Shown here: one piece after another, positions 1-8,015 of the stretch
Layout: each line of letters begins with the position of its first letter
Position numbering within the stretch: position 1 is the first letter of the stretch
Notes under the pieces: generated by a model
The model's input: the letters and a program-made list of their open reading frames with translations, nothing else
Databases searched by the model: none
Told to the model about the DNA's origin: nothing
Made by a program: the position numbers and the translations under genes
Source of the DNA: Escherichia phage vB_EcoP_PAS61
Sequence record: OQ921333.1
Reading direction: 5' to 3' (one strand)
DNA length: 39,287 nucleotides

Positions 1-150
1 TTTCCGGTGACGGTATATAAAACGGTACGAGGAAAATTGAGTTTTTGAAAAATGTTATCACTCAATTGGTTATGGTGTCCGTAAATAATTGAGTGGGAAT
101 GATTAACAGCTAACTCATAGCAACTCATTCCTATTCAGATAGTAATTTAA

Positions 151-181
151 CCCTCTGTTTTTACAGGGGGTTTTTGTTTTT
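151..181 (+). terminator. Rho-independent terminator-like hairpin (CCCTCTG / CAGGGGG) followed by TTTTTGTTTTT; would end a + strand transcript entering from the left
   Basis: Stem-loop with U-run seen directly in sequence. Confidence 0.45.
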
Positions 182-237
182 ATGTATTCATTTCTATTCA
201 CTCTACACCATATTTTTCGGCGGTACAGGTGACGGTA

Positions 238-252
238 TTACCTTAAAGGTAT
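238..252. promoter_or_regulatory. TTACC-N5-GGTAT near-palindrome (14/15 match to the dispersed TTACC-N5-GGTAA motif) overlapping a TATACT -10-like hexamer upstream of int
   Basis: ttaccttaaaggtat at 238-252; tatact at 250-255. Confidence 0.35.
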
Positions 253-294
253 ACTCTCATACCGTCATGAAAATGGTTTCTATACGGGTGAATT

Positions 295-1551
295 GTGCTT
301 ACCGATACAAAATTAAAAAACCTCAAGCCGCAGGACAAACTGTACAAGGTCTCCGATCGTGACGGGCTGTATGTAGCTGTGCTTACGTCAGGAACGGTCT
401 CGTTTCGCTATGACTACCGTATCAACGGTCGCCGCGAAACACTGGTAATCGGGCAGTATGGGCGTGACGGTATCAGTCTGGCAGAAGCGCGAGAAGAACT
501 GATTGCTGCAAAGAAGCTGCTTAAAGCAGGCCAGTCGCCGGCTGCGGCTAAACGTGACGGTATCAAAAAGATTCGTGGTGCCGAGACGTTTGCGGTACAT
601 ACCGACAGTTATATGAAACACGTCATCCTGGCTGACAGTACCCGCGCAATGAAGCAGTCGGTGATCGACCGTGACATACTTCCGGTTCTTGGCAACAAAA
701 TGATGGCTGAAATTACCACATCGATGGTTCGTGATTTGTGTGACCGGATTGTCGAACGCGGTGGCCGTGCAACAGCAGTACAGGCCAGGGAGATCATCAG
801 CAGCGTATACCGTCACGCCAATGACCGTGGTCATGGTTTGTTTAATCCTGCGGCTGACATTAAACCTTCGTCTATCGCCATATTTAAACCACGAGAGCGA
901 ACACTGACACCAGAAGAAATTGGCCTGTTCTTCCGCACGCTGGATGCCATTGGTGCTATGGGCACTATGAAAATGGCTTTAAAGCTGGTGCTTATCACTA
1001 TGGTTCGTAAAGGCGAATTCACTAATGCAACGTGGGACGAAATAGATTTTAAAAAATGGACATGGACAATTCCTTCAGACCGCATGAAGGGAAGCCGGGC
1101 GCACGTTATTTACCTGCCTAAACAGGCACAGGATATATTGGTTGGGTTGCAGATGTGCGCTGGTGGAAGTGAATATCTGGTTCCTGGTCGTTACAATTTC
1201 CGGAAGCCATTATCTAATGCCGCGCTGAACTCTCTGATCGACAGAACGGTGAAAATAATAAATGAAGATGGTGAGCATATTCAGGACTTCACCGTACACG
1301 ATATGCGCCGTACAGCAAGTACGTTGTTGCATGAGGCTGGTTATCCTTCAGACTGGATTGAAAAGGCTCTGGCACATGAGCAGAAAGGTGTGCGCGCCGT
1401 ATATAACAAAGCGGAATACGCCAGACAGCGCGCCTACATGTTGCAGCAGTGGGCCGATATGATTGATTCCTGGATTAACGGGGAGCATACGGATCTGATT
1501 CCGTTCTCCCCGTCGAAGTTTGAGAGGTGGATGGAAGACAGTAATAAATAA
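295..1551 (+). CDS. int: Tyrosine site-specific integrase (P4-like family), GTG start
   Basis: 418 aa ORF; N-terminal LTDTKLKNLKP...YKVSDRDGLYV motif typical of P4-type integrases; C-terminal HDMRRTASTLL...Y catalytic region; located at the prophage end. Confidence 0.9.
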   Translation: MLTDTKLKNLKPQDKLYKVSDRDGLYVAVLTSGTVSFRYDYRINGRRETLVIGQYGRDGISLAEAREELIAAKKLLKAGQSPAAAKRDGIKKIRGAETFAVHTDSYMKHVILADSTRAMKQSVIDRDILPVLGNKMMAEITTSMVRDLCDRIVERGGRATAVQAREIISSVYRHANDRGHGLFNPAADIKPSSIAIFKPRERTLTPEEIGLFFRTLDAIGAMGTMKMALKLVLITMVRKGEFTNATWDEIDFKKWTWTIPSDRMKGSRAHVIYLPKQAQDILVGLQMCAGGSEYLVPGRYNFRKPLSNAALNSLIDRTVKIINEDGEHIQDFTVHDMRRTASTLLHEAGYPSDWIEKALAHEQKGVRAVYNKAEYARQRAYMLQQWADMIDSWINGEHTDLIPFSPSKFERWMEDSNK

Positions 1552-1553
1552 TT

Positions 1554-2213
1554 CTATCCTTCCTGGACTTTGGTAAGCGTCAGATTTCCGCAGAACACTG
1601 CGCCGGTGTCGATGTACATCTGGTTTGCATACACCAGTGGGTGATGTGCTGGCGTATGACCGAAGATGAACAAATCGGCACCGGTTATCTCCGAGACAAT
1701 ACCGTCCTGCGCGTCGCTAACCCGCTCACGATTCCATATCACCATTTCTTCTGGTACTGGCTTATCGAATGCGTATTCGTTGTGCGGGTAGTCTGCGTGA
1801 CAGATGACGACCTTCTTATTGCCGGTAACCAGTTCGATAATCATCGGGAGGTTGGTAATCTTTGGCAGAAGGTATTTGAGTTGCACATCCTGCTCAGAAT
1901 CAAGTTGGTGCCACCATCCACCGCCGTTTGACATCCAATGTCCGAAACTTCCGCCGTTGACCAGTGCATCCAGCATCATCTGCTCATGGTTGCCACGAAC
2001 AGCTCGGAACCACGGCATAGTAATCAAATCCAGGCATTCGACGTTTTCAGCGCCGCGGTCAACAAGGTCACCAACGGAAATAAGTAAATCGCGCGCCGGG
2101 TCGAATGAAACTTTGTCGAGTTCGTTCATCAGCAGCGTGTAGCACCCATGCAGATCGCCGACGACGAAGATATTGCACCAGTCAGCGCCATTGATGCGTT
2201 GATATAGGTTCAT
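1554..2213 (-). CDS. Serine/threonine protein phosphatase (calcineurin-like metallophosphoesterase, lambda PPase-like)
   Basis: GDLHGC, GDLVDRG and GNHE metallophosphatase motifs; start chosen at internal ATG 2213 whose codon overlaps the upstream gene stop (ATGA), GGGAG RBS. Confidence 0.8.
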
Positions 2214-2860
2214 GCTGCACGCTCCCGCCCCTGGTTGTCTATTGGTGACACCGGAGCATTGCTGAATGCATTTGTTAATCCGCCAATATCCAACGCGTAT
2301 CCAGGGTGTAGTTGCACTGCCGGGTCTTCGCACTGATTACCCCAAACATCGAAGCCATGAGACGTCTGGCGGGCGAACAGTTCAATGCGAGAAACATCGC
2401 CTAACAATTGCACAAGTTTTTCACGAACGACATCTGGTTTTCTTGAATGCTCAAGCCGCGGTGCGGTAAATGACTGAACGATCCATGCATTAATGCGTGG
2501 AGGTAGTTTTCCCTTTACTGCAAACAGGCAATCTTCACTATTGGCGCGAGTCATGTGTCCCATACCCATAACCAGTTTATCTGGTTGTCGACTACCACAT
2601 TTTATCCACGTGAAGCCCTTCATGGTCATCAGACGGAATCCCCAGGCTTCAACAACTTTTAGCGCTTCGAGTGGTTGTGTTGGCACCCACCACATGGCCA
2701 ACAGACAGTTTTCATCGGCCAAATCCCACACAGGAAGGCGGCAGATGTCCATCACACTCATAACCGGATATTTAAAACTGGCACCGCGATTACCATCTGC
2801 GGCTTTGTCCCGGTATACCCAGGGTGGATCTGCATAGATTAGTGTGTATTTCTTAGTCAT
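2210..2860 (-). CDS. MT-A70 family N6-adenine DNA methyltransferase
   Basis: 216 aa; DPPW motif (IYADPPWVY) characteristic of MT-A70/Dam-like N6-adenine methyltransferases. Confidence 0.8.
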
Positions 2861-3152
2861 AAACCACCCCGCAACATCCTATACCGCTATAGTCTCCACG
2901 GCGAAGGCCGTTACCTTTTGTGATACATTGGTCCCTGCGAACCGCGATCCTTGCACGCTCAACATCACCAGAAGCAACATCCATACACTGAAGCCAAAGG
3001 TGAGCGGCAATGCGGAACTGCCCTTTTTTCTCTCTTTCAATCGCGCGTTTTTCGATCTCTATCGCCGCAGGAGTAACGGCGACAATCTTTGACGGACTGC
3101 GCATTGAAACCTTATTCATGTGATATTTTTCAAGTCGGCTTAACTTTCTCAC
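2853..3152 (-). CDS. Hypothetical protein (early-left operon)
   Basis: 99 aa ORF overlapping the methyltransferase start by 8 nt; GTG start with GAGG upstream; no recognisable motif. Confidence 0.4.
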   Translation of the reverse strand: MRKLSRLEKYHMNKVSMRSPSKIVAVTPAAIEIEKRAIEREKKGQFRIAAHLWLQCMDVASGDVERARIAVRRDQCITKGNGLRRGDYSGIGCCGVVYD

Positions 3153-3261
3153 TTAATCCAACCCTCTCTGAAAATTAATGCCAGCAGATAAAGCCATGCT
3201 GAAACAGAGGCCAGGAATAAGTACCATCCTGACCATTTGATCCAGTGCCTTAGCAGCGCAC

Positions 3262-3510
3262 TCATGCAGCGTTGCTCACGGGACGATATACACGTTGCTG
3301 AACAGGAGGTTTTTTACCCTGGAACTCTGCCGGGCTTGCTGCCTGACGTTCATCAAGCCAACGCTCAACTTCGTCACGGTTCCATGCGCAGCGTTTGTCA
3401 GTGATATACCAGCGTTTAGGAAATTCCCCTGCGCGCTCCATACGGTCGATAGTGCTCCATGACAGTGGCACCACCGCCAGGAGTTCCTTCTTACCTAATG
3501 CACCTTTCAT
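3262..3510 (-). CDS. AlpA-family HTH regulator / excisionase-like protein
   Basis: 82 aa; LSWSTIDRMERAGEFPKRWYITDKRCAWNRDEVERWL resembles AlpA/Xis-type winged HTH proteins. Confidence 0.65.
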   Translation of the reverse strand: MKGALGKKELLAVVPLSWSTIDRMERAGEFPKRWYITDKRCAWNRDEVERWLDERQAASPAEFQGKKPPVQQRVYRPVSNAA

Positions 3511-3559
3511 AAATACCTCTCTTGGTTGCAGTGCGGCGCGTGTGGCGCCGCGGTGGTGG

Positions 3560-4441
3560 TTACATAGATGTTTCGTTTAATTCTTCCCGACGAACGCTGT
3601 AAACGTCGGTGGCTTTTGCCAGTAGTTCGTCATCATCTGAAAGTTTTTGTGCAATGTATTTGTAAGCCTTATCCAGTTCGGAGACAGTGCTGTAATTCAT
3701 CGCTGCGCTGGTAAAGGCCATCAGCATTTCTTCTGGATCACGGCTATCCGCTTTACGCGTTTGCTCATCAGGCTTTTTCACTGGTTTAGCGTTGATCAGA
3801 CTGTTCATTCCCGCAGCAGTAGTTGTTTGCGGAGTAATGTCTCGTTCAACGCGCGGTGTCGTTTCCTGTAATTCGTCAGGGGTGTAAACACCGAGAAGTA
3901 CATCAGGAGCGTGCAGACGAGCCCATCGTTTCGTGCAAAGATAGGCAAGTTGCTGGCGCGGATCCTGTTCCCACAATGGAGAGTTACGCACTCCGGCTTG
4001 CGCCATACTGATGGTAAGCTCACGTGGTTCTGCTTCTCCTTTAAGAACTGCTGACACAGTTACCGTCAGATTCGGTGATTTATCTGTTTTGCCGTTAACA
4101 TTCGACCAGTCACCGCTCCAGCGATAATTCAGGCGTGTCGCTAGCAGGCTGGAAGAGGATACGACCGCGTTTACCAACTGTGCTTCGTAGCCTAACGTTC
4201 CGTTTACCACATGCGTTTTCTGCGCCACGGCGAAAGGGTTCATTCCCCACTGTGCCGCCTGCATGGTCACCGCCAGGCAATCGGCAGGTTTGCCTTCAAG
4301 ATGTTTCGGTACAGTCGCTTTGCTTTGTGACATCAACTCCGCGAAACGCACCAGTTGATTCATGCCCTCGGGGCTGAAGATTGCCGCAGCAGTGCCTACA
4401 GTTGCGCCTGGTTGTGATGTGATTGCGATATCATTGCTCAT
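3560..4441 (-). CDS. RecT/Red-beta family single-strand annealing protein
   Basis: 293 aa; segment VERDITPQ recalls the lambda Bet C-terminal region (from memory); paired with an upstream exonuclease via ATGA overlap. Confidence 0.55.
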   Translation of the reverse strand: MSNDIAITSQPGATVGTAAAIFSPEGMNQLVRFAELMSQSKATVPKHLEGKPADCLAVTMQAAQWGMNPFAVAQKTHVVNGTLGYEAQLVNAVVSSSSLLATRLNYRWSGDWSNVNGKTDKSPNLTVTVSAVLKGEAEPRELTISMAQAGVRNSPLWEQDPRQQLAYLCTKRWARLHAPDVLLGVYTPDELQETTPRVERDITPQTTTAAGMNSLINAKPVKKPDEQTRKADSRDPEEMLMAFTSAAMNYSTVSELDKAYKYIAQKLSDDDELLAKATDVYSVRREELNETSM

Positions 4442-5259
4442 ACGTACATATCCTGTTTACGTGCCCAGTCAGGGCGTTTAATAATTTCCACTCCGCCCCA
4501 TTCATCGTTGATGCGGCATTCGTGATAGGTATTCAGATCCCGGCGGAACAGAGCGTGCCCGGCATCGACATCCGGCGCATCCAGCTCGAACACGCGTACC
4601 GGATACCGACCACAATCAATGCTTTCGCTCACGGCAAGAAAGAAAAAACCATGCGGCTGACCAGTAACCCTCATTGCGCCTTCGCGGTACATTGCGTCCT
4701 GCACGTGGTAGCGGAATTCCTCGATGTGGCGTGCAAAACGGTCCATATCTGCAACCTTTTTCACGTCGACGATCACGTTGTGCTCGTTCAGCCATTTGTC
4801 TGGACGAATTCGGCACAACTCACCCGTCTCTTCATCGTTCCAGTACATTGATGCTTCGCAGTAACCAGGTGCTTCCAACATCCAGCGCGCCGCCGGATGA
4901 GCCATTGCGCTATCACGCATCAGCTCCAGTTTTCGCCACTGCTCGACATCAAGTACCGTAATACCCATATCCGCCACATCACGAAGAAATGCTTCTTCGT
5001 GAGCTTTACCTTGTTTTGTCCGACGATCGAATTTCGGTGAAACGATGAAGCGTTTGTCGAATTCTCCAGGCTCCAGAAGCAGACAGTGCAATGCGGTTCC
5101 CATATCCAGTGCAGACTTTTTCTCTTCGTCTTCTGGTGCTGCCTGAACCCATTTAAGAAGCGCCGGATTCTTGGCAACCATGTCCAGTTGCGACTTACTC
5201 ACGCCGTCACCGGCGTGGTAGTCTTCGTTGCTGATGTCGAAATAAATTCCCGGCTTCAT
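4438..5259 (-). CDS. PD-(D/E)XK exonuclease (RecE/YqaJ-like recombination exonuclease)
   Basis: 273 aa; DISNEDYH N-terminus, GTALHCLLLE and VIVDVKKV (D-x-K) motifs typical of PD-(D/E)XK phage exonucleases. Confidence 0.7.
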   Translation of the reverse strand: MKPGIYFDISNEDYHAGDGVSKSQLDMVAKNPALLKWVQAAPEDEEKKSALDMGTALHCLLLEPGEFDKRFIVSPKFDRRTKQGKAHEEAFLRDVADMGITVLDVEQWRKLELMRDSAMAHPAARWMLEAPGYCEASMYWNDEETGELCRIRPDKWLNEHNVIVDVKKVADMDRFARHIEEFRYHVQDAMYREGAMRVTGQPHGFFFLAVSESIDCGRYPVRVFELDAPDVDAGHALFRRDLNTYHECRINDEWGGVEIIKRPDWARKQDMYV

Positions 5260-5555
5260 GCCGCGTCCCTCTGCCCATCAAGCTGATCCGCCAGATCCCA
5301 GCGGGCGATAATTGCCATTGCCTCTCGCCGGTAGGCATCCATTAGTTCTTCGAACTCAGGGCTGTCTTTAGCGGCCTCCAGTACTTCCTGGCGAACGCCT
5401 TTGCCTGTTACAACGTCGAAAGTTGAGGCCAGTTGATGAAGTCGGATGCTCTCAATCAGTTCAACTTGTCGGTCATATAGCTGTTCTGACAGACGGTAGT
5501 CCTTGTCGAATGCCAGCATGATTTTTTGAAGATTTTTCTGCTGATTAACGTTCAT
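5256..5555 (-). CDS. Hypothetical protein
   Basis: ORF in track; start moved to internal ATG (MNVNQQ) preceded by GGAGGG RBS. Confidence 0.5.
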   Translation of the reverse strand: MNVNQQKNLQKIMLAFDKDYRLSEQLYDRQVELIESIRLHQLASTFDVVTGKGVRQEVLEAAKDSPEFEELMDAYRREAMAIIARWDLADQLDGQRDAA

Positions 5556-5557
5556 TA

Positions 5558-5710
5558 TCAGCCCTCCCATATCTCGTTATCGTTGGCTACATCGCGAGCT
5601 TCTTTGCTGACGAAAGCCCACTTAATGCCTTCCTGTAAGGTGCGGAACTTCCAGCTCATGAATCCGCATGCAGTAACGCAGTACCAACCGTTGATGATTT
5701 TCCACTGCAT
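5558..5710 (-). CDS. Small hypothetical protein (50 aa, Trp/Cys-containing), first gene of the early-left operon
   Basis: Hand translation MQWKIINGWYCVTACGFMSWKFRTLQEGIKWAFVSKEARDVANDNEIWEG; GAGGT RBS 9 nt upstream; stop abuts next gene RBS; below ORF-track size cutoff. Confidence 0.35.
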   Translation of the reverse strand: MQWKIINGWYCVTACGFMSWKFRTLQEGIKWAFVSKEARDVANDNEIWEG

Positions 5711-5729
5711 AACTTGTTACCTCGGTCTG

Positions 5730-5806
5730 TTACCGTTGAGGTAATAATCATGCGTATATGGTTTGATGTCAATAGATATGAGTTAAAAAAATTACCCGTT
5801 AGGTAA
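5730..5806 (-). promoter_or_regulatory. Early-left promoter region (pL-like): minus-strand -35 TTGACA (5772-5767), -10 GATTAT (5749-5744), flanked by two TTACC-N5-GGTAA operator-like palindromes (5730-5744, 5792-5806)
   Basis: Hexamers and palindromes read directly; 17-nt spacer. Confidence 0.5.
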
Positions 5807-5812
5807 TCGAAT

Positions 5813-5841
5813 AGGCAATAAAAAAGCCGCCATAAGGCGGC
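5813..5841 (-). terminator. Rho-independent terminator downstream of the repressor gene (GCCGCC-ATAA-GGCGGC followed by U-run on minus strand)
   Basis: Perfect 6-bp GC stem with flanking A/T run. Confidence 0.55.
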
Positions 5842-5863
5842 TTACTTACTGAAAAATATGGTT

Positions 5864-6448
5864 TTATTGTTTGTTTTTTTCGTTCTGGTTGATGACAAAT
5901 TCAATGTAACTTTCGATCTTTGCTTTCTCGGTTTCGGGTAACAATGCGTAGCGCGAGCGATCATAGTTGATGGTCGCAGGGTCGTGCGGGTGAATCAGTA
6001 ATTCATAGCCGTGACGCCCGAATGCGGATGCAACATTCTCCAGGGTGGAAATGGAAACGCTGACCTCATTGTTTAACAGGCGGCTGATTGTCACCTGGGC
6101 TACGCCGGATGCGCGGTGAAGTTTTCCCTGTGTTGAAAGGTCGCGGCTTTCGCTCATCCAGCGTTCCAGGTTGTGAGCCGCCAGCTGGCCAATGTCGCTT
6201 GGGCCGACAGGCTGAAAACCTTCCTGAGAAAGCGAGCGATCGATATCAAGCCAGTTACGGGGTTTATTGGCGGCAGCTTCAATTTTTCGCGCAACCTGGT
6301 CGCCGATAACCTTCTTGCCAAGAGCCCAGCGGTTTACCAGATTTGCCTGAGTTCCAAGTTTTTCTGCCATCCGCGTCTGAACACCATTGAATTCACGGTC
6401 GATCAAGTCGTTGAGATTTTGCCTGCGGACGTCCTGGATACTTTTCAT
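5864..6448 (-). CDS. Putative prophage repressor (CI-like role) with two helix-turn-helix regions; no obvious LexA-like S24 peptidase domain
   Basis: 194 aa; HTH-like segments GVQTRMAEKLGTQANLVNRW and GKLHRASGVAQVTISRLLNNE; divergent from a Cro-like gene across an operator-rich intergenic region. Confidence 0.55.
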   Translation of the reverse strand: MKSIQDVRRQNLNDLIDREFNGVQTRMAEKLGTQANLVNRWALGKKVIGDQVARKIEAAANKPRNWLDIDRSLSQEGFQPVGPSDIGQLAAHNLERWMSESRDLSTQGKLHRASGVAQVTISRLLNNEVSVSISTLENVASAFGRHGYELLIHPHDPATINYDRSRYALLPETEKAKIESYIEFVINQNEKNKQ

Positions 6449-6503
6449 TTTCTGGAAAATCGCCTCATATATGAATCGGTAGATGATTCAATTTAAAGCA
6501 ATA

Positions 6504-7199: not shown

Positions 7200-8015
7200 A
7201 TGAGCAGACATGCAACAGATTGGGCCTGGGAGACAGATCCAGGTAGCTCGTCATTAAAGCTCATACTGCTCTCGATGGCTGACAGAGCCGATGAATATAA
7301 CCTCTGCTACCCCAGCATAGAACGCCTCGTTAAAGACACCTGCTTGAATAAAAAAACCGTACAGGCCGGGCTTATATCGCTCATGAAAATGGGGCTTATT
7401 TCAGATACCGGAGAGAGAAAGGGAGCGACGAAAAGAGTGCGGGTTTTCTCTCTTAATATAACCAAAAAAGGGAACATTAAAGGCAACCTAGATGGGTGTA
7501 ATGAACCCGAAAACGGTAATGTTCCCAAAAACGGGAATATACCCAAAAACGGGATGTTGAATGATCCCAAAAACGGGATGTTGAATGATCCCAAAAACGG
7601 GATCCAGAACCAGTCATATAACCAGTCATTTAACCAAGAGAGGGAGAGCAGGACAAAAACCGGGGATTCTGTGCCTCATGACCCCGGCGCAAACAACGCC
7701 GTGATGAATAACTTTGTTCCTCCTGGTGGGCCAGGGCAATTAGGCAAATTTGTCATGCATGAACAATGGCAGCCATCAGATGACTTTCTTCGGAAAAGCT
7801 CATTGCAGGGAATCTACCTGGACAGTCTGCCAACGGCACAGGAACTTGCAGAGTTCAGAATTTACTGGATGGCTGAGGGTAAGGCATACCATCAGGCACA
7901 GTGGGAGCAGAAGCTGGCAAGGCGGCTGCAGATTAGCAGACAGAAGCAATCAACATTACCTGATAACAACGTTCCGCACTGGAACAGCCCTGAAGCATGG
8001 GAGGATTTCTTGTGA
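7200..8015 (+). CDS. Replication initiator (lambda O-like role) with N-terminal HTH domain; contains origin iterons
   Basis: 271 aa; N-terminal HTH-like region; internal PKNG repeat encoded by DNA iterons; directly coupled to a lambda P-like gene. Confidence 0.65.
   Translation: MSRHATDWAWETDPGSSSLKLILLSMADRADEYNLCYPSIERLVKDTCLNKKTVQAGLISLMKMGLISDTGERKGATKRVRVFSLNITKKGNIKGNLDGCNEPENGNVPKNGNIPKNGMLNDPKNGMLNDPKNGIQNQSYNQSFNQERESRTKTGDSVPHDPGANNAVMNNFVPPGGPGQLGKFVMHEQWQPSDDFLRKSSLQGIYLDSLPTAQELAEFRIYWMAEGKAYHQAQWEQKLARRLQISRQKQSTLPDNNVPHWNSPEAWEDFL
7506..7602. repeat. Putative origin of replication: five iterons CCC(A/G)AAAACGG(G/T)A spaced 18-24 bp, including a perfect 24-bp tandem repeat (7551-7574 / 7575-7598)
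   Basis: Direct repeats at 7506, 7524, 7542, 7566, 7590 read from sequence; location inside the initiator gene as in lambda ori. Confidence 0.7.

Follow-up and report, generated by a model that had tools for sequence, protein, structure and literature searches.

The sequence of Escherichia phage vB_EcoP_PAS61 (record OQ921333.1, 39,287 nucleotides, referred to here as the window) carries, beside its integrase gene, three overlapping minus-strand genes encoding a phosphatase, an MT-A70 methyltransferase and a 99 aa protein. An earlier note on this DNA had taken the tight coupling of the three as a sign that they function together, and the question raised by the locus is whether overlaps of this kind do denote a joint function. 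It is likely that the locus is the integrase-proximal end of an early-left (pL-like) operon of a phiV10/epsilon15-like phage, and that it holds three separate accessory genes. These would be co-transcribed and translated through their overlapping stop and start codons, as an ordinary form of gene packing for this genome. All three genes are ordinary and already known, as they belong to described families and carry the same names in RefSeq.

Gene order, junctions and genome context

The gene for the 99 aa protein, found to be of the PerC family (2853-3152, minus strand, GTG start), is followed by the methyltransferase gene (2210-2860, minus strand, 216 aa) and by the phosphatase gene (1554-2213, minus strand, 219 aa), the last gene of the proposed early-left operon. 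Reading of the sequence confirmed the coordinates and overlaps previously noted. The PerC-family gene stop and the methyltransferase start overlap by 8 nt (2853-2860; TTT-ATG-ACT-AAG over TAT-GAC-TAA), and the methyltransferase stop and the phosphatase start overlap by 4 nt in the ATGA at 2213-2210. Two nucleotides separate the phosphatase stop (1554-1556) from that of the convergent gene for a P4-type tyrosine integrase (295-1551, plus strand; Pfam Arm-DNA-bind_3, Phage_int_M and Phage_integrase matches), in agreement with the description of an operon next to the integrase.

The gene chain extends beyond the three genes originally described, as it also includes an unlisted 38 aa ORF (3149-3265, minus strand), predicted to encode a membrane protein with the sequence MSALLRHWIKWSGWYLFLASVSAWLYLLALIFREGWIK, and upstream of it the gene for an AlpA-family excisionase/regulator (3262-3510, minus strand; PF05930, 24.2 bits; PHROG 66, excisionase and transcriptional regulator). 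The 38 aa ORF links the AlpA-like gene to the PerC-family gene, with a 4 nt overlap at either end (ATGA with the AlpA-like gene stop and GTGA with the GTG start of the PerC-family gene). It was not called by PGAP; at the matching position in phiV10 it is annotated as p35, 'membrane protein'. Further upstream, past the end of a cI-like repressor gene (5864-6448) and its terminator (5824-5843), a consensus scan found a candidate pL-like early-left promoter (5744-5772, minus strand; TTGACA-17-GATTAT), which matches the consensus at 10 of 12 positions and may, judged by this match, drive early leftward transcription. No strong terminator-like site was found on the minus strand from 5744 to 1554, and no Rfam match to a structured RNA was obtained in 1-6500.

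The window belongs to a phiV10/epsilon15-like temperate podophage of the genus Uetakevirus. Positions 1-3600 are 98% identical to phiV10 outside one cassette (blastn), while 88-3600 are 99.7% identical to an E. coli prophage adjoining guaA, the site beside which phages of this type are integrated in E. coli lysogens. The order of the region, namely int, a small gene, the MT-A70 methyltransferase gene, a PerC-type activator gene, the 38 aa membrane protein gene, AlpA and RecT, is shared with phiV10 (NC_007804, p31-p36), epsilon15, SPN1S and Tyrion, all Uetakevirus. The phiV10 methyltransferase is 96% identical to that of the window and the 4 and 8 nt overlaps are the same; the PerC protein of phiV10 is identical over the annotated 88 aa, and 99% identical over all 99 codons (tblastn).

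A lambda NinI-type phosphatase on an exchangeable cassette

The phosphatase aligns with lambda PPase (PDB 1G5B; E 9e-100) at 66.8% identity, collinear and gap-free over 217 residues (1-217 against 1-217). It also matches the Pfam Metallophos family (PF00149; 58.7 bits against a cutoff of 21.5, residues 15-188) and PHROG 246, NinI-like (E 9e-108), so the lambda-PPase-like assignment made earlier was correct. The metal-binding and catalytic residues checked (D20, H22, D49, D52, R53, N75, H76, H139, R162 and H186), which we take to be, in the numbering of the 1G5B structure, those of the GDxHG, GDxVDRG and GNHE motifs and of the distal histidines, are identical in the two proteins (10 of 10). The enzyme is classified by its sequence as lambda NinI-type, and is predicted to have Mn-dependent protein phosphatase activity. 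It is a relative of E. coli PrpA and PrpB and an orthologue of neither, with scores below the NCBIfam equivalog cutoffs (266 against 326 bits for PRK11439, and 222 against 332 bits for PRK09968). The start was assigned to the ATG at 2213, where PGAP also places it, because a 259 aa ORF from the GTG at 2333 includes 40 additional residues that are absent from lambda PPase and overlaps the methyltransferase gene.

In lambda, ninI is an accessory, non-essential gene inside a chain of overlapping genes (PMC10695390), the nin region being a classical 'chain of interlinked genes' as cited in that article (reference 64 in PMC10695390). In the window, the phosphatase gene instead closes the leftward operon and abuts int; it is outside the nin region, which lies between the replication genes and Q, a position typical of the family and not defining for it.

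Comparison with phiV10 by blastn aligned 1-1534 and 2208-3600 at 98% identity, with an unrelated stretch between them. This cassette (1535-2207) is 673 bp long here and 203 bp long in phiV10, where it contains a DUF1382 gene. Its left breakpoint falls in the last codons of int, and its right breakpoint just past the second codon of the downstream gene (ATG AAC). The C-terminus of the integrase changes with the cassette, from ...FEKWMAGE in phiV10 to ...FERWMEDSNK in the window. The slot is occupied by a 64 aa DUF1382 gene in phiV10, a 59 aa gene in SPN1S, a 68 aa gene in Tyrion and the 219 aa phosphatase here; the phosphatase is absent from phiV10, epsilon15, SPN1S and Tyrion. In phiV10-like phages, the slot that separates int from the methyltransferase gene is a cargo site with breakpoints placed precisely at gene boundaries.

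The earlier suggestion that the phosphatase, the methyltransferase and the small protein form a single functional unit, for example an anti-restriction or host-reprogramming module, draws on the 4 and 8 nt overlaps within one transcription unit, and on conservation, the trio being kept at an identity of at least 98% among the E. coli matches listed and the cassette being present at an identity of at least 95% in 146 E. coli records. The adjacent integrase is covered in every one of the cassette matches listed. Overlap is, however, generic here: PGAP annotation of the 99.7% identical prophage shows 20 of 44 same-strand adjacent pairs (45%) overlapping, 10 of them by exactly 4 nt and 2 by 8 nt. 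Moreover, each of the closest 80 IMG/VR loci has a 4 nt overlap (ATGA) between the methyltransferase stop and the start that follows, although the gene in that place is one of three unrelated ones (a DUF1382 gene in 44 loci, the phosphatase gene in 30 and an 82 aa hypothetical gene in 6). Among loci from other species, the 4 nt overlap after the methyltransferase gene is found in 22 of 37, with many unrelated genes downstream. As overlaps are widespread in the genome and the ATGA is kept whichever gene follows, joint function is not demonstrated by the overlap.

The distribution of the genes likewise speaks against a unit of three. The methyltransferase-PerC pair is present in 514 E. coli complete genomes, approximately one tenth of those available, whereas the phosphatase occurs in about a quarter (~28%) of the prophages carrying the pair and is missing from ~72%. 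It is never directly downstream of the methyltransferase gene in the 37 loci from other species, and lies within 3 kb of it in only one, a nin-region context. NinI-type phosphatases are normally without MT-A70 neighbours: among 1455 phage records with a NinI-like gene, only that of BP9 reaches at least 80% identity, and among the matches listed BP9 is the only record in which the NinI-like gene abuts an MT-A70 gene, the remainder belonging to nin regions or to large lytic phages. A single functional unit of three genes is thus already largely refuted by distribution, and must be regarded as highly improbable. For the phosphatase, the argument from tight coupling fails, and the gene is swappable cassette cargo and not the partner of the methyltransferase; its product would be dispensable and would work independently of the methyltransferase, and the gene could be exchanged for small genes unrelated to it. 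ATGA-type overlaps are the default packing in such strings of phage accessory genes and are no evidence for joint function.

An orphan MT-A70 methyltransferase and its likely target

The methyltransferase matches the whole MT-A70 profile (PF05063; 80.4 bits against a cutoff of 23.9, profile positions 1-172 of 172) and PHROG 359, DNA methyltransferase (E 1e-118). The DPPW motif is at residues 11-14, within YADPPWVY (9-16), and in 36 homologues P12 and W14 are invariant, with D11 and P13 nearly so. In the AF2 model (pLDDT 73), residues 202-216 of the C-terminal tail are almost all below 50. A Foldseek search with this model retrieved METTL3 and Tetrahymena MTA1 (E about 1e-12, TM 0.65-0.70), which, together with the full-profile match, substantiates the MT-A70/DPPW assignment of the earlier note. 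PADLOC matched this gene alone, to generic models only (Type II MTase, E 1e-76), and nothing in the way of defence or anti-defence systems was found by it beyond generic Type II methyltransferase models. No restriction endonuclease gene was found beside the methyltransferase gene, the neighbours being those for the PerC-family protein, the phosphatase and the integrase. As these neighbouring genes are identified and none of them encodes a nuclease, the enzyme is an orphan, and by sequence it is classified as a beta-class MT-A70 N6-adenine methyltransferase and not as part of a Type II restriction-modification system. The putative anti-restriction, epigenetic and host-signalling roles proposed for genes of the locus are reasonable.

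The closest studied relatives are from Stx phages. Residues 1-187 are 82-83% identical (BLASTP) to M.EcoPA8orf6770P, the MT-A70/DPPW enzyme that occurs with PNB-2 in Stx2a phage PA8 (KP682374), and to the enzyme of the O104:H4 phage P13374, which is 99.5% identical to M.EcoPA8orf6770P and is presumably M.EcoGV. The alignment stops at residue 187, and the tail of the window's enzyme (188-216) is unrelated to those of PA8 and P13374, such that the last 20-30 residues differ altogether. Both in the Stx phages and in the window a small gene overlaps the methyltransferase start; it encodes PNB-2, a putative winged HTH protein, in the former and the unrelated PerC-family protein in the latter. A DUF1382 gene follows the methyltransferase gene in the Stx phages as it does in phiV10. 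More distant counterparts are the GATC-specific enzymes PhiBZS1_p32 and M.EfaBMDam of Tn1549, which match the window's enzyme in Pfam family and small single-domain size and, as here, are of a class encoded near the integrase in temperate phages as orphans without a nuclease (PMC7556043). The nearest sequence compared, the HK639 enzyme, is only ~45% identical to that of the window.

By analogy with homologues that have been tested experimentally, the methyltransferase is most likely Dam-like and would methylate phage and host DNA at GATC. In PMC6602927, M.EcoGV is entered as a Dam homologue specific for GATC; overproduced M.EcoGV has been reported to methylate this site in vivo, and the enzyme to resemble M.EcoPA8orf6770P closely (PMC10810198). 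An MT-A70 enzyme of a Serratia phage, 75% identical to the HK639 enzyme, methylated GATC in a dam- E. coli host in the absence of any partner (PMC7556043). The assignment is contested for the closest studied relative, because purified M.EcoPA8orf6770P had almost no activity on DNA and preferred 16S rRNA once it was combined with PNB-2 (PMC10810198).

The enzyme might then act chiefly on 16S rRNA as an m6A methyltransferase, adjusting translation and prophage induction. With 83% identity to M.EcoPA8orf6770P over residues 1-187 and a fold closest to that of the RNA enzyme METTL3, it resembles a protein which, with PNB-2, favoured 16S rRNA and 30S subunits and led to more spontaneous induction (PMC10810198). 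The model is, however, about equally close to the DNA 6mA enzyme MTA1. The phage also lacks a PNB-2 homologue (no BLASTP alignment; hhalign probability 0.1), and its enzyme has another sequence in place of the 27-residue C-terminal tail of the Stx type, which the authors of that study linked to PNB-2 binding; the same work did not establish which rRNA base is modified (PMC10810198). Since GATC in DNA is moreover the in vivo target of M.EcoGV and of two further MT-A70 enzymes from bacteria or phages (PMC6602927, PMC7556043), a principal role on rRNA appears rather unlikely, and a Dam-like activity on DNA is the preferred reading. GATC avoidance, considered as a clue to specificity, was uninformative, as the 153 sites in the window give an observed/expected ratio of 0.77, resembling that of other palindromes. 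The claims made for the closest studied relative, GATC methylation of DNA on one side and partner-dependent methylation of 16S rRNA altering Stx-phage induction on the other, are in conflict, and this phage, with another upstream protein and another C-terminal tail, offers a natural variant for weighing them.

The PerC-family protein and its pairing with the methyltransferase

The 99 aa protein, previously listed as unknown, belongs to a named family. It matches Pfam PerC (PF06069; 30.1 bits against a cutoff of 22.6, residues 35-80), as do 11 of 11 aligned relatives, and PHROG 868, 'transcriptional activator', end to end (1-99 of 99, E 6e-62), and its RefSeq/PGAP name is 'PerC family transcriptional regulator'. 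It resembles the ANR family, of which it is not a member by the NCBIfam ANR_neg_reg model (NF033650; 23.6 bits, below the cutoff of 32). Alternative starts at ATG 3119 and ATG 3104 would give proteins of 88 and 83 aa, respectively; the GTG at 3152 is supported because residues 1-11 are conserved with SPN1S and Tyrion and because this start takes part in the 4 nt GTGA overlap upstream. The AF2 model (pLDDT 75) is a three-helix bundle spanning residues 28-82, for which the nearest folds in Foldseek are MIT/TPR-like but non-significant (E 0.3 or worse). There was no HTH fold among the Foldseek matches of this model, and a PDB sequence search with the protein gave no matches.

By analogy with PerC/Pch and ANR proteins, this helical protein probably modulates transcription through protein contacts. 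It shares with PerC of EPEC, PchA-E of EHEC and ANR proteins (Aar) the Pfam PerC match, the small size and the helical character, and differs in its extra 30 N-terminal residues and in a conserved C-terminal Y-S/A-G-I motif. Like the PerC gene of the window, the pch genes are prophage-borne (PMC7369912). Many E. coli carrying a prophage of the window's type are commensal, avian or environmental isolates.

While the phosphatase is exchangeable cargo, the other two genes are perhaps not fully independent, because their order recurs across genomic contexts. The 8 nt overlap of the window is shared by 76 of the 80 closest loci; a PerC-like gene on the same strand is upstream of the methyltransferase gene in 13 of 37 loci from other species, and a same-strand MT-A70 gene is downstream in 25 of 42 loci retrieved with divergent PerC-like queries. 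Two neighbourhoods are involved, with the pair between AlpA and int here and between a replication protein gene and RusA elsewhere, and it is found also in a 60-kb Klebsiella phage. The two genes might accordingly be viewed as a two-gene module, in which the PerC protein is an accessory or specificity subunit of the enzyme or its dedicated regulator. The closest studied methyltransferase requires a partner encoded upstream (PMC10810198), and the predicted core of the PerC protein, an MIT/TPR-like three-helix bundle, would have a protein-binding shape rather than that of an HTH. The structural relatives solved so far (METTL3, MTA1) all serve as the catalytic subunit of a heteromer, which makes it insecure to hold that the methyltransferase acts alone. 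PNB-2 and the Stx-phage enzyme would be one parallel to such a module, and METTL14 or MTA9, each with its catalytic partner, another.

Several observations weigh against it. The pair is often split by DUF1317, DGQHR/ParB-like or wHTH genes; 24 of the 37 methyltransferase loci have no PerC gene within 3 kb, and 17 of the 42 PerC loci have no methyltransferase gene. The loci are phylogenetically non-independent, so that much of the association may be due to inherited synteny. MT-A70 homologues expressed alone methylate GATC (PMC7556043), and the roles documented for PerC/Pch involve no methyltransferase (PMC7369912). PNB-2 was considered as a hidden relative of PerC and rejected as unrelated, on the same lack of BLASTP alignment and hhalign probability of 0.1 given above. 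Co-variation of the methyltransferase tail with PerC was also discarded, as the type of tail is independent of PerC presence and short-tailed enzymes, too, have PerC upstream. A PerC profile search for fusions returned only proteins of at most 152 aa. The only PerC-methyltransferase fusions found (P0123 and P0121, 96% identical to the locus) look like frameshift variants and were treated as such or as assembly errors; one has a 1 nt deletion in the TTT run of the junction and the other an internal deletion. The literature yielded nothing specific on the methyltransferase of phiV10, nor on PerC in combination with such an enzyme.

On this balance a two-gene module is unlikely. The same low probability attaches to the broader proposal that PerC proteins are conserved companions, as accessory/targeting subunits or dedicated regulators, of Dam-like MT-A70 enzymes in temperate phages of Enterobacterales; separate accessory genes remain the preferred explanation. 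If the proposal were true, PerC/Pch would have a methylation-linked ancestral role, and the rule that MT-A70 enzymes need a partner would reach phages. As it stands the locus is of little consequence, and the recurrent PerC-to-MT-A70 gene order, a lead of some value, is the only one worth following. The same-strand order of PerC followed by methyltransferase is often accompanied by a ParB/DGQHR-like gene and a gene for a tiny membrane protein.

Gene layout and phage setting

The phosphatase (1554-2213), the MT-A70 methyltransferase (2210-2860) and the 99-aa PerC-family ORF (2853-3152, GTG start) overlap on the minus strand as claimed in the earlier note, the ORF list and the raw sequence being in agreement on overlaps of 4 and 8 nt. 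The shorter one is the ATGA at 2210-2213, joining the methyltransferase and the phosphatase, and the longer one, between the 99-aa ORF and the methyltransferase, consists of ATGACTAA over TATGACTAA at 2853-2860. The ATG at 2213 is the true start of the phosphatase; the GTG at 2333 chosen by the ORF lister was rejected, as it adds 40 residues that have no counterpart in the lambda phosphatase and that overlap the upstream gene. In favour of the GTG start of the 99-aa ORF, the amino acids at residues 1-11 are conserved in Salmonella phage SPN1S and in Enterobacter phage Tyrion. This start codon is overlapped by 4 nt (GTGA) by a 38-aa membrane ORF (3149-3265, minus strand), which also overlaps by 4 nt (ATGA) the AlpA-like gene (3262-3510) upstream in the same gene chain. 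The 38-aa ORF is hydrophobic (translation MSALLRHWIKWSGWYLFLASVSAWLYLLALIFREGWIK), is annotated as a membrane protein in Escherichia phage phiV10 and in SPN1S, and is missing from PGAP annotations of E. coli genomes. The distant loci L131, L146, L148 and L161 have a comparable membrane ORF of 40-44 aa after the PerC-like gene.

The integrase gene int (295-1551) is convergent with the phosphatase, and their stop codons are 2 nt apart. No terminator-like site was found between the two genes (1549-1556), so that early-left transcription would read antisense into int, which may be a regulatory feature.

Apart from one replaced segment, window 1-3600 shares 98% identity with phiV10 and its relatives; over 88-3600, identity to an E. 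coli prophage beside guaA reaches 99.7%. The phage belongs to the epsilon15/phiV10 temperate podophages, genus Uetakevirus, and the locus is a common, already annotated part of this well-known group; only two of its points merit experiment, namely the synteny of the PerC and MT-A70 genes and the question, disputed for this enzyme clade, of what the methyltransferase acts on. Bases 1-87 match the phage form, the sequence downstream of the lysis genes in phiV10, and also some prophages; they are unlike the guaA-side junction of most E. coli lysogens, for which the alignments do not extend to the left of base 88. The att crossover is accordingly placed close to position 88, and the window has the look of an excised or complete phage genome.

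RecT/Bet and exonuclease genes lie upstream of the three-gene set on the same strand. A candidate sigma-70 promoter (5772-5744, minus strand) has 10 of 12 consensus matches, and beyond it is a cI-like repressor gene (5864-6448) with its terminator at 5843-5824. From the candidate promoter to 1554, the minus strand showed no strong terminator-like site. By likeness to lambda pL, the three genes would form the distal end of an early-left operon.

Two adjacent copies of TGGGATCATTCAACATCCCGTTTTTGGG occur at 7550-7593 (minus strand) within a 271-aa ORF (7200-8015), and look like iterons of a replication origin inside a replication-protein gene, as in lambda O. Across the whole window CTAG is very scarce (11 observed, 31 expected); the observed/expected ratio is also low for GGCC (0.58) and AGCT (0.65), and mildly so for GATC (0.77).

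The phosphatase as a cargo gene

The phosphatase aligns without gaps to lambda protein phosphatase (PDB 1G5B; E 9e-100, 66.8% identity), and all ten metal-binding and catalytic positions checked are conserved, in the lambda residue numbering of the 1G5B structure paper; the lambda-PPase-like assignment is thereby borne out. Its PHROGs family is NinI-like, and it scores under the NCBIfam cutoffs for the chromosomal PrpA and PrpB equivalogs.

The earlier note had read the tight coupling as a sign of joint function. Overlaps are the background state of this genome: of the 44 pairs of same-strand neighbours that PGAP annotates in the near-identical prophage, 20 overlap, and in 10 of those the overlap is exactly 4 nt. 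The lambda nin region, the usual home of NinI, appears in the reference list of PMC10695390 as a textbook 'chain of interlinked genes'.

Alignment to phiV10 showed that 1-1534 and 2208-3600 match, while the 673 bp between them (1535-2207; counterpart at 3035-3237 of locus L001) replace a 203-bp stretch carrying a 64-aa DUF1382 gene. The breakpoints of this slot between the methyltransferase and int are gene-exact. The right one directly follows ATG AAC, the two opening codons that the alternative downstream genes share; on the left, the break lies within the last codons of int, and hence the integrase C-terminus varies with the cassette (...FERWMEDSNK or ...FEKWMAGE). Three alternative cargos were found. 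In the 80 closest IMG/VR loci (methyltransferase at least 96% identical), the methyltransferase is followed by DUF1382 in 44 cases, by the phosphatase in 30 and by an unrelated hypothetical gene of 82 aa in 6, and all 80 have the 4-nt overlap.

Among 5426 complete E. coli genomes, 514 carry the methyltransferase-PerC pair; the phosphatase cassette was found in 146 records (at least 95% identity) and adjoins the integrase in every row listed. In 37 loci from other species (methyltransferase 62-86% identical) the phosphatase is never the gene directly downstream of the methyltransferase, and the 4-nt overlap is retained in 22. The only other locus with MT-A70 and NinI-like genes close together, from Ewingella (L023, 2543-5145), has the NinI-like gene 850 nt downstream and NinB upstream, as fits ordinary nin-region synteny. 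Of 1455 phage records with a NinI-like gene, only BP9 has one that is at least 80% identical, and this gene abuts an MT-A70 gene, the sole such case among the records listed. In lambda, ninI is dispensable, plaques being formed without it (PMC10695390). The phosphatase is an interchangeable terminal cargo gene, and joint function does not follow from its overlap.

The methyltransferase and its substrate

The methyltransferase covers the whole Pfam MT-A70 profile with DPPW at residues 11-14, in support of the assignment made previously, and its AlphaFold model (pLDDT 73) superposes on METTL3 and on MTA1, a DNA 6mA enzyme of Tetrahymena, with TM 0.65-0.70. PADLOC gave generic Type II methyltransferase models only and no nuclease gene neighbours it, hence it is an orphan enzyme.

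Its core (1-187) shares 83% identity with M.EcoPA8orf6770P of the Stx2a phage PA8 and 82% with the corresponding enzyme from the O104:H4 phage P13374, these two being 99.5% identical to each other. PMC6602927 lists M.EcoGV, the Stx-phage enzyme of O104:H4, as a Dam homologue acting on GATC; PMC10810198, with reference to earlier work, reports its high similarity to M.EcoPA8orf6770P and, on overproduction, GATC methylation in vivo. We infer that the P13374 enzyme is M.EcoGV. In a dam- host, plasmid DNA became resistant to MboI and sensitive to DpnI through an MT-A70 enzyme from a Serratia phage, with no partner (PMC7556043); this enzyme shares 75% identity with that of phage HK639, which in turn shares 45% with the one studied here.

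Against this, purified M.EcoPA8orf6770P is almost without activity on DNA, and with PNB-2, a small protein encoded just upstream, it prefers 16S rRNA and increases spontaneous prophage induction (PMC10810198). That the present enzyme acts mainly on RNA is nevertheless unlikely, since PNB-2 is absent from vB_EcoP_PAS61, and the C-terminal tail, suspected by the authors of binding PNB-2 (PMC10810198), differs between the two enzymes. Together with the GATC methylation attributed to M.EcoGV and the Serratia enzyme, these differences favour a predicted Dam-like DNA enzyme.

The tail (residues 188-216, window 2210-2296) is modular across relatives, and occurs as a 29-aa phiV10 type, an unrelated Stx-phage type and short tails with an AA end. 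A tail-like peptide (NAPLAPTDNQG) is on a separate downstream ORF in Kluyvera locus L012 (3591-3755), and the database protein P0192, a mosaic, joins a divergent N-terminal half to a C-terminal half and tail of the phiV10 type.

The PerC-family protein and its association with MT-A70 genes

The 99-aa protein, held to be unknown in the earlier note, which was right on the other two families, belongs by its sequence matches to the PerC family: it matches Pfam PF06069 (30.1 bits, cutoff 22.6) and PHROG 868 'transcriptional activator' (over 1-99 of 99), and is named 'PerC family transcriptional regulator' in RefSeq. It scores under the NCBIfam ANR cutoff. The predicted model (pLDDT 75) has a three-helix bundle (28-82) and a disordered tail; the folds closest to it, of MIT/TPR-like type, fall short of significance, and none of its matches has a helix-turn-helix fold.

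PerC-like and MT-A70 genes co-travel more often than their neighbours. Of the 37 other-species methyltransferase loci, 13 have a same-strand PerC-like gene no more than 3 kb upstream. Divergent PerC-like queries retrieved 42 viral loci, and 25 of these, or about 9 of 16 distinct lineages by a rough grouping of near-identical loci, have a same-strand MT-A70 gene no more than 2.2 kb downstream. Surroundings differ, the order in distant loci being replication-initiator gene, winged-helix-PerC fusion protein, 40-aa membrane protein, ParB-like protein, methyltransferase and RusA. As all solved relatives of the methyltransferase are catalytic subunits of heteromers, this recurring order could mean that PerC-like proteins act with MT-A70 enzymes as partners or as regulators dedicated to them. 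Such a role is quite improbable, the case being weakened by the genes frequently lying in between (in SPN1S, a DGQHR gene, DndB/ParB-like), by the numerous loci with only one of the two genes, by the shared phylogenetic history of loci that are not independent, by MT-A70 homologues that act alone in vivo and by the known roles of PerC and Pch proteins without a methyltransferase (PMC7369912). Moreover, the sole in-frame PerC-methyltransferase fusions in databases, P0123 and P0121, with the junction at 2853-2860, resemble frameshift variants of the same locus: the first is accounted for if the TTT run just ahead of the methyltransferase start codon is one T short, the second by an internal deletion. 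They are probably frameshift variants or assembly errors, although they could be tolerated natural fusions.

Proteins of 136-170 aa with an N-terminal winged helix and a C-terminal PerC-like part are encoded upstream of divergent MT-A70 genes in Buttiauxella (L027, L031), Dryocola (L026) and the IMG/VR loci L131, L146, L148, L151, L159 and L161; the IMG/VR loci are replication/nin-type regions, often with a ParB-like (DGHHR) gene in between.
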